From Candidatus Binatia bacterium (GTDB lineage: Bacteria > Desulfobacterota > Binatia > Bin18): a stretch of DNA of 64,000 nucleotides. The stretch is from assembly GCA_963666315.2 (NCBI GenBank), contig CAXXHG010000018.1, forward strand, positions 110,936-174,935. Reading direction: 5' to 3'. The position numbers were made by a program, and so were the translations under genes. Of the stretch, positions 44,961 through 53,586 are shown one piece after another. Every line of letters begins with the position of its first letter. Position 1 is the first letter of the stretch. The notes under the pieces are model-generated. The model had not been told where the DNA came from. It ran no database searches and was given only the letters and a program-made list of their open reading frames with translations.

Positions 44961-44991
44961 TGTCAGGTTACGCTCCGCTAACCTGACCTAC
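44961..44991 (-). repeat. GTAG-family REP element
   Basis: TGTCAGGTTACGCTCCGCTAACCTGACCTAC (reverse-orientation copy). Confidence 0.8.
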
Positions 44992-45822
44992 GGGACTCCT
45001 CTTCTGGATCGAGCGGATAATGCTGCCGCCGATAGCGCAAGCACTCACGATTGAGCCGATGCCGAAAATCAACTCGCAACTGCCCTTCCCTACCGATGAG
45101 TTGGAAATCATCAGCAATCGTGACTCCTCCAATATCAAACAACACACGACAGTTCGGACAAAGACAGAGCATGTTCTCTGGAGAGTCCGGGCCATTGTGT
45201 GGGGCTTCGAGAGGCCGAATGTGGACAGCTTCCGCATACGGACCAGCAGAACCCTCAAGTCGGACACCGCAGATCTGACAGCGATAATGATAGAGCTGTT
45301 TGAGCTGTCGGGCGTGGACAGTCTCGCAAGCAATCATATAACCATCTGATGACTCGATCAGTTTATCCACTTCTATTCTGACAAGACGAAAACGCCAAAT
45401 AAAAACCCAGCCCGTCCAACTTCCCTCCAATAGTCCCCGACCGCATACAGCCCATAGTAACGGTAGCCCACGTCAGGGACATACGCTGAGCGGAAACCAG
45501 CCCCACGAATGAGACGAACAGGTAGGCTGTGTAATCGGTTCTGGGCGAGAGCGAGGTTTCCACGGCTTAAGGGTTGGTGGCCGATCTGTCTTTTAGTGTC
45601 CGGGTCACGTCCACCGTGTCCGGTATAGAAGATCACATCCCCAAAATCCTCACCATCTTCATAGCCACCGGCCAGGACAACCGAATCGGCCCCTTCACGT
45701 CCACTCCCAGAAATGCCTGCAACGCGAGGACGATGCACTCCAGATTTGGAGAGTTCCGCCCGTGAGGCGAACCGACTGCCCACGGGATAGCCGGGGATAC
45801 GACCAAAAATGCGCTCTGACAT
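44978..45822 (-). pseudogene. SRA(YDG)-HNH modification-dependent (type IV) restriction endonuclease, frameshifted
   Basis: SRA part: GVHRP..AGISG..SVVLAGGYED.D.GD..YTG.GG..GN.AL..PVRLIRG. HNH part: CQICG..YAE.VHIRPL..H.GPD...N.LCLCPN. The halves join with one extra T in the T5 run near 45401-45405. Confidence 0.82.
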
Positions 45823-48775: not shown

Positions 48776-49555
48776 ATGTATCAATACCTAAAATTATCAG
48801 ATGTACAAGATGAATACATTCTGACCAACGGCATCTACAATAATGATGTAGAAAACTATTATATCACGGATGATTGGTCTCCGGGGATGTACGAGGCACT
48901 TGCATTTGCGGGTTTTATCTCTATTTCGATAAAAGATGAGGAAGGGAAAGCTTATCTATTTCCTGAAATGCAATTTAGTTATGCCGTGTTACACTGGGAT
49001 AACTTGCATATATCAAAGCGCTTAAAAGATTTTATTGCTAAAAAAGTGCTAGCTCATAATTACGGCGTTTCAGTCAATAGAGATACCGAAGCGGTGTTTG
49101 ACGGTATAATACATTACCACGATGATAAGAATTGGATGATAGAGCCTTGCCTAGATGTTTTGTGAGCACTGCAGGATACTCAGCAGAAATACAATCTACA
49201 ACTGATGTCTATTGAATTGTGGGATGGCAAAAAATTGGTAGGAGGAGAGATTGGTTATATTATCGGGAGTATCTATACCAGCCTGACAGGATTTTTCGAT
49301 AGAGAAAATTATAGCAACTTCGGTAAAGTCCAATTGCTGTCGCTGGCATTACTTTTAAAAGAATCAGGATACGCATTTTGGAATATGGGACATCCGCATA
49401 TGGATTATAAATTAGATCTGGGTGCCATCGAGTATCAGCGACGAGACTTTCTCACTATGTGGATGAAATACCGTAATGGGAAATCTGAATGTGGGATGTC
49501 AGATAAATTTTTTACTTGCGATGAATTATTAGCCGATGTTATTACAAGTCATTAG
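48776..49555 (+). pseudogene. Leucyl/phenylalanyl-tRNA-protein transferase (Aat)-like gene with an in-frame TGA; AT-rich
   Basis: ORFs 48776-49165 and 49205-49555 are in one frame across TGA 49163-49165. Motifs LHISK.L, W, S.ELW...LVGGE.G...GS.YTSLTGF, YK..LGA. Confidence 0.75.
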
Positions 49556-49613
49556 ATAGCATCAAAAAGCAGGGTCCAATATTCATTTCAGTGATCTTGA
49601 TGAGGAGGTTGCA

Positions 49614-50126
49614 ATGGCACTCAGCTATCACGTAGGACAGCAGTTCCCCTCGCTGAGCCTGATCGATGATCGGGAGCAGGAGGTTTCGATCGCGGAGCTG
49701 GCAGGAGGGCAGCCGTTGGTCTTGGCTTTCTACCGGGGACCGTGGTGACCGAAGTGACAGGTTCAACTGCGGGAACTGGTCCAGTTCCATCAACGTACCG
49801 AAGTGTCCTATTGCCGACTGGCGGTTGTCTCCGTCGATCCTCCCCTCGTCCAGGCAGCCTTCAAGGCGGGCCTGAGTGCCCAATTCCCCTTCCTGAGTGA
49901 CACAAAGCTGATATTTACCGACAAGCTCGGCATCCGTGAAACGACCGACAGGTCTCACGGTCCCCTCCCCGTCCCCTTTACCTTCGCGCTTTTACCCGAC
50001 CTGACGATACACCGGATTTTCAATGGCTGGTACTTCGTTGGCCGGCCAACACAAGACGAGCTCCGCATCACCATTCGGGAGATGATGGGCAAGACCATAC
50101 AGGACGCGGACTTCAGAGGTGAGTAA
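49614..50126 (+). CDS. AhpC/TSA (peroxiredoxin-like) selenoprotein with a UxxU motif (Sec45, Sec48), 170 aa
   Basis: GAGGAGG RBS, ATG 49614, in-frame TGA at 49746 and 49755 in FYRGPWUPKUQVQL. The frame continues into track ORF 49803-50126 and aligns along its length with Cys paralog 52747-53586. Confidence 0.82.
49772..49788 (+). promoter_or_regulatory. Bacterial SECIS-like hairpin
   Basis: GGAACTG-GTC-CAGTTCC stem with an apical GGTC as in the E. coli fdhF SECIS, starting 14 nt after the second TGA. Confidence 0.65.
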
Positions 50127-50311
50127 CCCAGCAAAAAAGAGTTGGAACGATACAATGGAACGGGAAGAAGGAGACATAGCATCTTTCTTAAGCTTACGGG
50201 ATGAACGGCCCTCTACGCGCCTTCTAAAAAGGAGGGTAAGGTCTGGGATAAGATAATAATGTTGCACCGTCCCTACATGGATTGTATTCGTATTGTTGAT
50301 ATATTACCCCC

Positions 50312-50497
50312 ATGAAAGTTGGTGAGGTGTTACGGGTGCTTCGTGATGCTGGTTGGTATCTTATAACAACACGAGGGAGCCATCGGCAGTTTAAGCATCC
50401 CACCAAATCTGGCCGGGTCACTGTTTCCGGCAAGCCCAGCGACGATCTGGCTCCTGGTACTCTCAACAGAATTCTCAAGCGAGCTGGTCTCAAGTAG
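50312..50497 (+). CDS. hicA: HicA-family toxin
   Basis: L...GW....RGSHRQFKHP.K.GRVTV.G..DLAPGTL..IL..AGL. Confidence 0.9.
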   Translation: MKVGEVLRVLRDAGWYLITTRGSHRQFKHPTKSGRVTVSGKPSDDLAPGTLNRILKRAGLK

Positions 50498-50507
50498 GGA
50501 GGGCTGT

Positions 50508-50720
50508 ATGCGCTTTGCCATTGTGATTGAAAGAGCTGAGAACAACTACTCAGCCTACGTGCCGGATCTGCCGGGCTGTGTGGCTACCGGGGCAACCCTG
50601 GAAGAGACCGGGCGAACGATCCGCGAAGCGATCGAACTGCACCTGACTGGCATGCGAGAAGACGGCCTGCCTGTGCCGGAGCCCTCAAGTCAGGTCGAAT
50701 ATATCGAAGTCACGACCTAA
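50508..50720 (+). CDS. hicB: HicB-family antitoxin
   Basis: IVIE....YSAYVPDLPGC.A.G.T.EE....I.EAI.LHL..MREDG.P.P.P. Confidence 0.9.
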   Translation: MRFAIVIERAENNYSAYVPDLPGCVATGATLEETGRTIREAIELHLTGMREDGLPVPEPSSQVEYIEVTT

Positions 50721-50836: not shown

Positions 50837-52524
50837 TCACTGCTCGCTCGATTCGACTACACCCAGACGTTGCGTATTCTCAAACCAGCGCAGGCGGACG
50901 TCTATCGTCTTCTGGTCACCGCTGCTCTTGTCACGCACGACCAGCCCTTCGACAATAATCTCGGCCCCATCAATCCGCGTTGTTGCACCAGAAACGTCGA
51001 AAGCGCTCAGAAACTCAGAGCCGCCCGGCTTGACGACCGTCACCGTACGCAGGGGTGTCGAGAAGACGGCACCGGAGGAAGTTTGGATTTCAACACGGAT
51101 GGTGTGTTCTCCAGTCGCAAGTACATTCCAGTTGAACAATAGCCCCCAGCCACTCCGCAGCGTATTGAGCGCGGGCAACTGTGGAAAGGCAGCCTGCACG
51201 TCACCGCGCTCAGAACAGCAGGGCACCGTCCCTCGCGATATCCCATCAATAAAGAGTTCGACCGGTGCGATGAATGCGCCGACTTAGGTAGCCACCGCCC
51301 AGCCGGCAATAAGGTCAATACCCGACACCGCCTGTTCAGCCTGGGGAACCTCCTGCTGTGCCATGATCGCAACACCCTCAGCCTCTTGTTCCGTATTCAC
51401 AAGACGCGCAATCGTTCCTCGAAGTCCAACCACATATATCTCGCCGGCCTCGTCTTCAGCAAAGGAAACTAGCAAGAGATCCGTATCGAGCACGACGGTC
51501 TGTGCTCCATTTTCATGTAGGAAGATCTCGCCTGTACAAAAATCACCGTAGACGTAGGCTCCAGTTGGCAGCGTCAAGGCGTTGCCCCGGTAGACGTAGC
51601 CGCCGGTAATGGAGCATCTGCCCTGCATATGATCGTATTCGATGAGAGGCGTTATGAAATTTTCGGCAAGACACGCGTCGGGTCCAAGGTCGGTACACAG
51701 GCTCCCCTCGAACACCCGCCAGCCATAGTTTCCGCCTATCGTGACAATGTCCACTTCCTCACGCTCATCTTGTCCGACATCGCCAGCATAGAGTTTATGC
51801 GTTACTCGATCAAAGGAAAACCGCCACGGGTTCCGTAAGCCGAATGCGAAGACTTCGTCTCGTCCTGATATATCACCAAAAAAAGGATTCTCTGGGCGTG
51901 AAGAATACGGCACACTTGCACTCTGCGGTTGGTCAATATCAAGGCGCAATATTTTCCCTAACAGGTCATTCGGATTTTGGGACCGGTTGTCCGGGTCGTT
52001 GCCCAAACCACCGTCACCTGTGGCAATATACAGCAAGCCATCCGGCCCAAACACGAGCATGCCACCATTGTGGTTGCTAAACGGCTGGGCGATGCTGAGC
52101 AGTACGACCTCTTGTACATCCGCTAGATCTGGATTCAGCACTGAGGCACGGTACTCGGCGATGACGGTCGTGCCGTCAGGGTCACGAGTGTAGTTCACGA
52201 AAAATCGACGGTTTCGCGCAAAGTCCGGATGAAAGGCAAGTCCCAGCAGCCCACGCTCGCCACCCGAAAGTATGCGCGATTGGATGTCAAGAAACACACT
52301 CGGCACTACTCCGCCAGGCTGGAGGACGAGAATCCGGCCGGCTTGCTCAAGCACAAACAAGCGCTGACTTCCGTCTCCGGCGTACGTGACATAAACGGGG
52401 CTTGTAAGGTTCGTTAACACCGGCTCAAGGCAACCGACTGCGCACCTAGATCTTGTACGAGTAGCAGGCTGATCCAGAGTCCGGAACACACACACAGGCA
52501 AATCGCTCTAAGAGCGTGTCTCAT
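50837..52524 (-). pseudogene. PQQ-dependent sugar dehydrogenase (GSDH) with a C-terminal Ig-like/unknown domain, disrupted
   Basis: [24 protein letters not shown]...GDGG, GKILR and [11 protein letters not shown]. The signal peptide lies in another frame (frameshift near 52430). An in-frame TAA at 51284-51286 separates the C-terminal domain (50837-51283). Confidence 0.8.
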
Positions 52525-52746: not shown

Positions 52747-53586
52747 TTACGTAGACCCCGCGCGTCCGGCATGCCGGACGCGTACAACATGCCGGCCCTG
52801 CGCGCCCTCGACAATGTCGAATTCGACCACCTGGCCAGGGGAAAGTGACCGGTCGCCTTGTCCGGGTATACCGGTAAAATGAACAAAGAATTCTTCGCCC
52901 TCGTCCGCTTTGATGCGGCCTTGGCCTTTGGTAAACCAGAGCACCCGGCCCTTCCCTTTTCCAACAATGTTGAGATTGACAGCGTCTCTTTGACCCGCCC
53001 AGTACGCGGCTGGAATGCGGACGGATTTTACTCTGGGTGCCTCCCACGCCACATGTGGATAATCCGCCCGGCCGTGCATAAGAGCGCGCAGGTCTTGGCG
53101 TAGCTCTTCGACCGAAGGACGTCCGGCCAGCCACCAGCCATTGTAAATTTTGAAGATCGTGAGATCCGGTCTCAGGCAAAATGTGTGCGGGATCGCAATA
53201 TTCGGATATTCTCCATCGGTGTTGTCCATAATGCCGAGCTGGTTAATCACTGACCGGTCAGCGTCACTCAGAAAGGAAAACTCAGCTCCAAGACCGGCCC
53301 GATAGGCTGCGGTGACCCTAGGCGCGTCTACACTGATCGCCACCAGGCTGGCATAGTTGAGCTGTATTTCAGGATAAAAGCTGACGAGCTGACTGAGCTG
53401 TCTATGGTCTCTGGGACAAAAGAAGCCCCGATAAAAAACCACAATCAACGGGCGACCTTGGGTAAATCCGAGTCGGCGCTGAAATTCGTCGCTAACGCTG
53501 AAGTCCGAGAGCCGAACGCTCTCTCCAGTATGATCTGGCAGAATAAAGTCAGGCAAGCGTTGGCCGGGTTGGAGAGTCGTTCCCAT
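52747..53586 (-). CDS. AhpC/TSA redoxin (CPRD) fused to a C-terminal cold-shock domain
   Basis: N-terminal: PDF.LPD, FYRGFFCPRD, ISVD, FLSD. C-terminal: G.V.WF..G.G.I...G.E.FVHFTGI...G.RSL..GQ.VEF.I.EG..G. Confidence 0.88.
   Translation of the reverse strand: MGTTLQPGQRLPDFILPDHTGESVRLSDFSVSDEFQRRLGFTQGRPLIVVFYRGFFCPRDHRQLSQLVSFYPEIQLNYASLVAISVDAPRVTAAYRAGLGAEFSFLSDADRSVINQLGIMDNTDGEYPNIAIPHTFCLRPDLTIFKIYNGWWLAGRPSVEELRQDLRALMHGRADYPHVAWEAPRVKSVRIPAAYWAGQRDAVNLNIVGKGKGRVLWFTKGQGRIKADEGEEFFVHFTGIPGQGDRSLSPGQVVEFDIVEGAQGRHVVRVRHAGRAGST

Follow-up and report, generated by a model that had tools for sequence, protein, structure and literature searches.

A 64,000-nt stretch of contig CAXXHG010000018.1 from a Candidatus Binatia bacterium (assembly GCA_963666315.2; the whole stretch is referred to here as the window) contains, at 49614..50126 on the plus strand, what very probably is an intact selenoprotein gene, judging from its sequence, in which two in-frame UGA codons, 45 and 48, are both read as selenocysteine (Sec, or U). 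The predicted protein is a thioredoxin-fold redoxin of the AhpC/TSA kind, and the two UGAs fall on the two cysteine positions of its CxxC motif, turning this into UxxU. We incline, on balance, to a fuller picture in which one relocated Sec insertion sequence (SECIS) would drive two Sec insertions, 9 nt apart and at spacings of +23 and +14, giving a diselenide centre in a peroxiredoxin (Prx)-like protein that is widespread in marine bacteria.

Translation confirms the frame that a preliminary description of this DNA had picked out. A Shine-Dalgarno-like GAGGAGG, read directly at 49602..49608, lies 5 nt upstream of ATG 49614, and from there 170 codons run to a TAA (50124-50126), broken by two TGAs only: codon 45 (49746..49748), at the N-terminal Cys position of CxxC, and codon 48 (49755..49757), at the C-terminal one. 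The motif region reads ...LAFYRGPW-U-PK-U-QVQLRELVQF..., and the window copy has no frameshift and no further stop. With C substituted for U, the protein matches the Pfam families AhpC-TSA (PF00578; E 2.4e-18, 66.7 bits against a cut-off of 26) and Redoxin (PF08534; E 2.6e-14), and gives no match to PF04592 at E<=0.1. Its M-A/P-L start is conserved across 13 orthologs, and its C terminus carries a signature of the subfamily, FTFALLPDL..H.I.NGW..GRPT. A gene caller would be expected to report only the stop-bounded open reading frame (ORF) that begins at GTG 49803 and ends at 50126; this ORF encodes 107 aa, the truncated fragment that had been foreseen.

The two TGAs are not peculiar to the window. 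Relatives were sought in four scans: of 61 related genomes, of a class-wide sample of 401 genomes, of named genome contigs and of metagenome sequence. Among the 61, a member of the same genus (G024) encodes a protein 90% identical with the motif W-U-PK-U, a second genome (G009) holds a fragment with both TGAs, and a third (G020; 78% identity, cut by a contig end) reads W-S-PK-U, codon 45 being TCA. Three class-mates, at 48-49% identity, read W-U-[PG]K-C, and the paralogs found in this search F-C-PR-D. The class-wide sample yielded matches at E<=1e-25 in 114 of its 401 genomes, concentrated in certain families: 61/64 in f4, 26/27 in f15, 3/4 in f17, 7/94 in f9 and 11/54 in f1, the last being mostly the paralog. 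(The f4 tally includes three unpublished genomes, G340, G350 and G392, with a one-TGA match each; without them it is 58/61.) It also supplied a third full two-TGA ortholog, from another genus (G143; 86% identity). The one-TGA orthologs, G020 apart, have TGA at codon 45 and TGC or TGT at codon 48 in 28 of 28 cases, or 29 if L063, from the unpublished G350, is counted. They belong to a sister family (FYRGYW-U-[PGA]K-C) that occurs in the majority of genomes in two families of the same class, given as Binatia in record labels, and that resembles the UxxU clade in length, in having Sec at 45 and in its fold motifs, at 46-56% identity.

The named genome contigs contributed 65 loci: 11 UxxU, 1 SxxU, 4 CxxE and 49 UxxC, one UxxU being a duplicate of G024 and the SxxU a duplicate of G020. 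Full-length two-TGA copies from genomes thus number 13 (the window's own genome, G000, with G024, G143, L085-L087, L089-L093, L109 and L135). The phylum labels on the UxxU records include Latescibacterota, Actinomycetota/Acidimicrobiales, Tectomicrobia and one 'Spirochaetales'. Named records that match the rows of class-mates exactly bear the label Candidatus Binatia. The labels of L084, L086 and L088 ('uncultured Enterobacteriaceae' or 'uncultured Spirochaetales') clash with the gene's relatives and with genus placement, and seem unreliable. The metagenome scan, which used a clade-specific alignment, returned 48 loci, 44 with the motif region and four partial ones without it; the 44 comprise 38 with TGA/TGA, four with TGA/TGC or TGA/TGT, and two distant CxxC homologs.

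Taken by position, codon 45 is TGA in 13 of the 14 genome copies of the clade (the TCA of G020 being the exception), in all 42 metagenome clade loci, and in every sister-clade UxxC ortholog read; it is Cys in the CxxD, CxxE and CxxC homologs. Codon 48 is TGA in 14/14 genome copies and in 38/42 metagenome clade loci, with TGC or TGT in the remaining 4/42, and Cys in the sister UxxC family (28/28 orthologs with L063 omitted, and 49 of the 65 named loci). Homologs therefore offer TGA or Cys at both positions, as the preliminary description had anticipated.

Trees built with positions 45 and 48 masked separate the two forms. The first comprised 97 rows, 83 of them distinct, and omitted L035, the duplicates L084 and L088, and the unpublished L063. 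In it, 12 UxxU rows group with the SxxU row in a single clade (SH-aLRT 98), the 76 UxxC rows all fall into a second (88), and the CxxE rows neighbor the UxxU clade (82); L135, a UxxU row with a long branch, stays unplaced. The second tree, of 75 rows, combined all 42 metagenome rows of the clade with every UxxU, SxxU, CxxE and CxxD row from genomes and a selection of 12 UxxC rows. Here the clade grows to 55 rows—50 UxxU, four UxxC and one SxxU—with SH-aLRT 95. The four UxxC members nest within it at two places, L169 with L187 and L165 with L190, and so codon 48 has changed from TGA to TGY twice, independently.

Selection on the gene is purifying on both sides of the TGAs. We compared the window gene with each relative by the Nei-Gojobori method, and the ratio of nonsynonymous to synonymous divergence (dN/dS) came to 0.173 for codons 1-44 and 0.108 for codons 49-170 against G024 (dS for 49-170, 0.415), to 0.124 and 0.113 against G143, and to 0.16-0.29 and 0.084-0.099 against L085, L086 and L087, for which dS over codons 49-170 is 1.3-1.9. 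In all five comparisons the region past the TGAs, which would go untranslated if these were stops, is the most constrained part of the gene. This bears directly on the suspicion that we are looking at a decaying pseudogene, two of whose nonsense mutations have landed by chance on active-site codons. Signs of decay do occur nearby, in that a Leu/Phe-tRNA transferase-like gene is split here and intact (259 aa) in G024, and the clade itself is patchy within the genus and includes two copies, L154 and L155, with an extra TAA. Against these stand the same two TGAs in 51 sequences under several phylum labels; dN/dS of 0.08-0.11 past the TGAs at dS up to 1.9; a window copy without frameshifts or other stops; and, as described below, a covarying hairpin downstream and the presence of Sec machinery. 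Chance decay is accordingly extremely improbable, and the conservation of the TGAs together with dN/dS refutes it for practical purposes. The same argument had been made beforehand, that two chance nonsense mutations at these codons are unlikely, and it has gained in force: both TGAs are kept in 13 genome copies and 38 metagenome contigs, with low dN/dS downstream.

Nor do the TGAs look like sequencing errors. Contigs from three DNA runs belonging to three studies of seawater or marine metagenomes, spanning 49415-50202 (X3), 49640-49882 (X5) and 49302-49772 (X6), show no difference at either TGA, so that independent reads support both. X3 also has G>T at 49604, within the Shine-Dalgarno sequence, which might be a strain variant or an assembly error. 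One RNA-library run (X17) gave a single 256-nt contig, 49756-50011, a mere hint of transcription.

The source genome is equipped to insert Sec. The assembly, G000 (47 contigs, 4.99 Mb, 92% complete), contains selA (592.8 bits; cut-off 267.9), selB (378.3; 242.25) and selD (308.3; 125), and a tRNA-Sec (66.8; 47) that adjoins selA, so the whole of the machinery sought is there above curated cut-offs. ARAGORN finds 50 tRNAs genome-wide, with a single tRNA-SeC (anticodon tca). A search with RF01852 and ARAGORN for a gene resembling tRNA-ReC, which reads UGA as Cys, found none in this 92%-complete assembly. Two candidates were rejected: a second RF01852 match above the gathering score proved to be an ordinary tRNA-Ser(tga), and an unusual tRNA called by ARAGORN at C22:83715-83802 pairs poorly in its acceptor stem. 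The sole tRNA with a GCA anticodon in the genome is a 75-nt tRNA-Cys. The selD match (L009, G000:C28:39602-40519) lies inside a 761-aa open frame, far longer than selD, and may be a fusion; Ndh-SelD fusions, described in the GOS paper as far as its available text goes, offer a possible parallel.

A genome screen for motif plus hairpin turned up recognizable selenoprotein contexts, among them a Prx (FYPKADTPG-U-TTE), two AhpD-like C-H-Y-U, three G-D-U-G-S-C paralogs, two U-P-V-C and several W-U-P-x-C. Other Prx-like selenoprotein genes of the genome share the context of the UxxU gene, with FYRGAW-U-PYC and FYRGHW-U-PYC. The three G-D-U-G-S-C paralogs, at C38:90769(-), C15:217747(-) and C20:37612(-) of G000, have an in-frame TGA and are probable selenoproteins in their own right; downstream of each, a GU-loop hairpin of 7-9 bp begins 10-12 nt past the UGA.

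TGA is otherwise a working stop codon. Of 1864 ORFs with 300 codons or more, 526 end in TGA, 674 in TAG and 664 in TAA, and this genome is therefore not recoded; TGA is also the genuine stop of the G024 and G143 orthologs. These figures leave next to no probability for the proposal that TGA has been reassigned as a non-stop codon in this organism, and the companion idea, that only the 107-aa downstream ORF is real, fares equally badly. It finds its support in the databases: the best 120 of 424 database relatives are all fragments of 97-137 aa, called 'peroxiredoxin' or 'hypothetical protein', and none is full length. But the GTG at 49803 is not conserved as a start, other fragments beginning elsewhere, hence the range of lengths; codons 1-44, which the short ORF omits, are under purifying selection (dN/dS 0.12-0.29); and in a structural model the 107-aa fragment would lack strands 1-3 and the active-site helix.

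The RNA signal is a hairpin at 49772..49788, GGAACUG-GUC-CAGUUCC, found by folding and supported by covariation. Its 7-bp stem (49772-49778 paired with 49782-49788) encloses the 3-nt loop GUC (49779-49781) and starts 14 nt past UGA-48 and 23 nt past UGA-45; several folds give a minimum free energy of -7.6 to -9.0 kcal/mol. From UGA to loop is 21 nt for codon 48 and 30 nt for codon 45, and the published bacterial SECIS (bSECIS) model, in the form available, sets a window of 16-37 nt, which covers both. The SECIS-like hairpin noted in the preliminary description thus holds up: stem, GU-starting 3-nt loop, spacing and minimum free energy all agree with the four published bSECIS criteria, for both UGAs. 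In the UxxU clade 87.5% of cells are paired over 14 sequences, versus 27-57% with the partners slid, and two pairs show double changes. One of these, C-G to U-A, arises from a pair of silent substitutions (Leu CUG>UUG and Gln CAG>CAA), in L093 and L135 and again in L170, L173 and L177. Each of the 42 metagenome clade loci retains six or all seven of the pairs, in the same columns. Over the interval from -30 to +100, RNAalifold reports the distal hairpin as the only robust helix, and for UGA-45 no second conserved structure, only a weak 3-bp CAG/CUG helix.

The sister family is built differently. Unlike the UxxU clade it has Cys at 48, and its hairpin starts 9-10 nt past UGA-45 and carries the loop AGUU. 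This proximal hairpin has 87.2% of cells paired over 59 distinct sequences, versus 17-59% with the 3' partners slid, and double changes at three pairs (for example CAGGUGC/GCGCCUG, GUGGUGC/GCGCCAC and GCGCUGC/GCGGCGC). In the UxxU clade only 2-3 of 7 pair in the proximal columns. Eleven TGA-free homolog genes range from 1 to 6 of 7 pairs in the distal columns and from 0 to 6 of 7 in the proximal, and in either set of columns just one gene reaches 6 of 7. A proximal SECIS would, then, have been lost in the UxxU clade, and a hairpin further downstream would have taken over.

Can one hairpin serve two UGAs? UGA-48 poses no difficulty. In the twelve other confident selenoprotein genes of the source genome the stem starts at +9 to +14 past the UGA, and one of these, at C43:725630 (FYRGHW-U-PYC), with 7 bp, a GUC loop and a stem at +14, has the same geometry as the window hairpin has to UGA-48, which is therefore canonically placed. 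For UGA-45 the revertants are instructive. In L169 and L187, UGA-45 is the only Sec codon and the hairpin at +22 the only robust structure; L165 and L190 are ambiguous, having acquired a 7-bp hairpin in the proximal position, its UUCA loop devoid of G. The +23 spacing probably works, since UGA-45 is kept in 13/14 genome and 42/42 metagenome copies and L169 and L187 rely on the distal hairpin, and so it seems to us somewhat more probable than otherwise that the single distal hairpin (49772-49788) serves both UGAs. SelB carrying Sec-tRNA(Sec) would bind this one hairpin; the ribosome would reach UGA-45 first, with the hairpin 23 nt ahead, and three codons later UGA-48, with the hairpin 14 nt ahead.

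There is another way to read the same geometry, in which only one UGA specifies Sec. The other might be read as Cys by a SelB-dependent tRNA-ReC-like molecule, or as Trp, Cys or Arg by near-cognate suppression, or UGA-45 might be decoded very inefficiently, and no diselenide product would arise. The +23 spacing of UGA-45, beyond the +9 to +14 range of the genome's other selenoprotein genes, favors this, as does G020, which shows that a form with Ser at 45 is possible. tRNA-ReC, moreover, is enriched in UXXU genomes, at ~56% versus ~2.3% of other Sec-type genomes according to the accessible text of PMC13582414, which adds that where it is present one or both UGAs may be read as Cys. But no such tRNA was found in this 92%-complete assembly, and UGA-45 persists in nearly every genome copy (13/14) and in all 42 metagenome copies. 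The published 16-37-nt bSECIS window takes in both codons, besides, and the revertants L169 and L187 depend on UGA-45 with the distal hairpin alone. We consider one-Sec decoding unlikely, if much less so than decay or recoding, and continue with Sec at both codons.

Several observations weigh against that reading, or against parts of it. The spacing of UGA-45 just discussed, though inside the published window, is outside the genome's own range. Shuffled sequences fold as stably as the local region (z 0.09), and an Rfam scan of 49600-49900 at E<=10 gave two chance matches and no SECIS family. Conserved codons for E-L-V-Q-F make up the hairpin, the GU of its loop starting an invariant Val codon, and part of its conservation is therefore protein constraint; the homolog L195, which is CxxC, pairs 6 of 7 at the distal columns. 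The basal fork that joins the UxxU clade, the UxxC family, the CxxE rows and L135 is unsupported, and the direction of change, UxxC to UxxU, is unsettled by the trees. Contig X3, at a depth of 4, has T>A at 49615, changing the start from ATG to AAG, which may be an error at such depth, and the RNA contig X17 does not reach UGA-45 and could be DNA carry-over.

The distribution of the gene is a further complication. Within the genus it is patchy, occurring in G000, G020 and G024, with the fragment in G009, among 28 genomes. L154 and L155, identical metagenome copies from different records, have an extra in-frame TAA at codon 54; this TAA falls in the 5' arm of the hairpin, and both copies are probably pseudogenised. 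The G020 copy (L029, G020:C237:1-528), with TCA at codon 45, has a dN/dS of 0.465 over its N-terminal codons 12-44 and 0.176 over codons 49-170; it also has two codons deleted, and the loss of its stop codon extends it by 18 residues. The looser dN/dS and the lost stop suggest that it may be decaying. Its S-x-x-U mimics the T/SxxU of Sec-containing peroxiredoxins, and may signal either a functional shift or early decay.

An AlphaFold model of the protein, made with a 13-sequence alignment, has a pLDDT of 88.7 and a pTM of 0.86. It places a strand at 35-39, a loop, and a helix at 46-62, with residue 45 as the N-cap and residue 48 in the first turn, the CxxC site. The nearest solved folds are BCP/PrxQ (3hjp, TM 0.82) and the ResA type (TM 0.67-0.71). 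With these structures (3hjp, 2ywn/4g2e, 2cx3 and 1st9) the UxxU protein has its fold in common at 15-23% identity. A sequence profile matches 2ywn at E 3e-10, and in this alignment residue 45 falls on the Thr of the Prx TxxC and U48 on the Cys of FYPAAFTQVC, the peroxidatic Cys. The Pro and Thr of the Prx PxxxTxxC are not conserved in that alignment: Arg41 and Sec45, which do not vary within the clade, stand in their places. In the alignment with 2cx3, the Arg of A-K-R-A-V-F, which we take to be the catalytic one, falls on the invariant Pro121.

The UxxU protein, then, retains the fold of a Prx while apparently lacking the peroxidase triad, and it carries a pair of the CxxC type; we infer from this an oxidoreductase of the dithiol type. 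Its predicted function, by analogy, is likely to be that of a diselenol/diselenide thiol/selenol-disulfide oxidoreductase rather than a classical peroxidase. U45 would attack and U48 resolve, and the two selenols would cycle via an intramolecular diselenide. The preliminary description had called this gene a UxxU redoxin; the reality of the gene and the conservation of its TGAs are borne out, and Sec insertion at both codons and the diselenide have the standing of predictions. The gene neighborhoods of 12 clade loci have nothing in common, and only G024 shares the synteny of the window, so no partner or substrate suggests itself.

To our knowledge UxxU centres are rare, and SelL is the only one to have been studied. 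Bacterial SelL is said to use one in-frame SECIS for both UGAs. SelL is like the present protein in having the UxxU motif in a Prx-like thioredoxin fold; it has been reported to form a diselenide, and to occur in fish, invertebrates and marine bacteria (PMC2397514, in the part available). By the NCBIfam cut-off the two are not one family. Against the model NF040769, 'SelL-related redox protein', the UxxU protein scores 30.6 bits, the cut-off being 120; no gene of the source genome passes that cut-off, the genome-wide best, 33 bits, belonging to other genes. NCBIfam has no model specific to the UxxU subfamily. The GOS study, in its available portion, assigns UxxU only to a family called 'Prx-like 2', which is pfam04592-like; the present protein differs in matching PF00578 and PF08534, not PF04592.

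A closer home exists. Two reviews, as far as their accessible text goes, list among predicted selenoprotein families a 'Prx-like thiol:disulfide oxidoreductase' of PF00578, UxxC or UxxU, with 1~2 Sec (PMC9312934, PMC13188914), and by their rule—same domain, same motif—the putative product of the UxxU gene is filed there. It has in common with those proteins a PF00578 match above the cut-off, the FYRGxW-U-Px-C/U context, a function that is predicted only, and truncation by gene callers. It differs in being only 27-33% identical to the other Prx-like selenoproteins of its own genome, in its distinct C-terminal signature and in a SECIS placed further downstream. The earlier proposal of a different redoxin subfamily can be kept to the extent that the protein lies outside the SelL-related family (NF040769); as a novelty it falls, the UxxU type being already catalogued in the available parts of those two reviews. 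Motif strings of the subfamily were absent from the Sargasso, GOS and deep-Sep supplementary sequence files, which is weak evidence, as these files are possibly incomplete. The 14 WUPKC matches in the GOS supplement belong to another subfamily and were rejected. A literature search found no paper on Binatia selenoproteins.

A second bacterial precedent for two UGAs three codons apart comes from UXXU-type Group 4 [NiFeSe] hydrogenases, for which one downstream SECIS has been proposed to serve both (PMC13582414, accessible text). The protein and its function there are unrelated, the residues being Ni ligands, and the hydrogenase SECIS is said in the same text to be unchanged between CXXU and UXXU forms, whereas here the UxxC family and the UxxU clade have their hairpins in different positions.

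What is added to knowledge here is the size and spread of the UxxU clade, its Sec/Cys revertants, and the differing SECIS positions of the UxxC and UxxU forms. A redox protein widespread in marine and soil settings is missing from catalogues and from selenoproteome counts, its database entries being fragments and no specific NCBIfam model existing. If our account is right, the family preserves a series—a proximal SECIS in UxxC, a distal one in UxxU, the distal one still present in UxxC revertants, and one SxxU form—and would constitute a natural system for examining the reach of SelB and the benefit of a second Sec. About 50 natural UxxU sequences, the Cys revertants and the sister UxxC family are at hand for tests, and these bear on how SelB decodes two UGAs three codons apart and on what UGA-hairpin spacing is tolerated.

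The paralog that the preliminary description had aligned with the gene at the motif, FYRGFFCPRDHRQL, was located on the minus strand, in the ORF at 52747..53586. This ORF encodes 279 aa, an AhpC/TSA redoxin (F-C-P-R-D, with Cys 45 and Asp 48) joined to a C-terminal cold-shock domain (CSD). The redoxin-CSD fusion, an unusual one, recurs as frames of 278-321 aa in G009, G024, G029, G037, G143 and others. Between the UxxU gene and the paralog lie a HicA/HicB toxin-antitoxin pair (50312-50720, plus strand) and a glucose/sorbosone dehydrogenase gene (51284-52501, minus strand). In G024 the two redoxin genes are ~300 bp apart, and the arrangement in the window looks like an insertion.

Upstream of the UxxU gene, the Leu/Phe-tRNA protein transferase-like gene takes the form of two plus-strand ORFs, 48776-49165 and 49205-49555, of 129 and 116 aa. 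The second piece matches profile positions 100-169 only, and the G024 ortholog being one 259-aa ORF, the gene is probably broken here. Further upstream, at 44978-45822 on the minus strand, two ORFs in different frames share 58 nt, one of 149 aa with an SAD/SRA domain and one of 150 aa for an HNH endonuclease; the pair may be a frameshifted SRA-HNH restriction-type gene.

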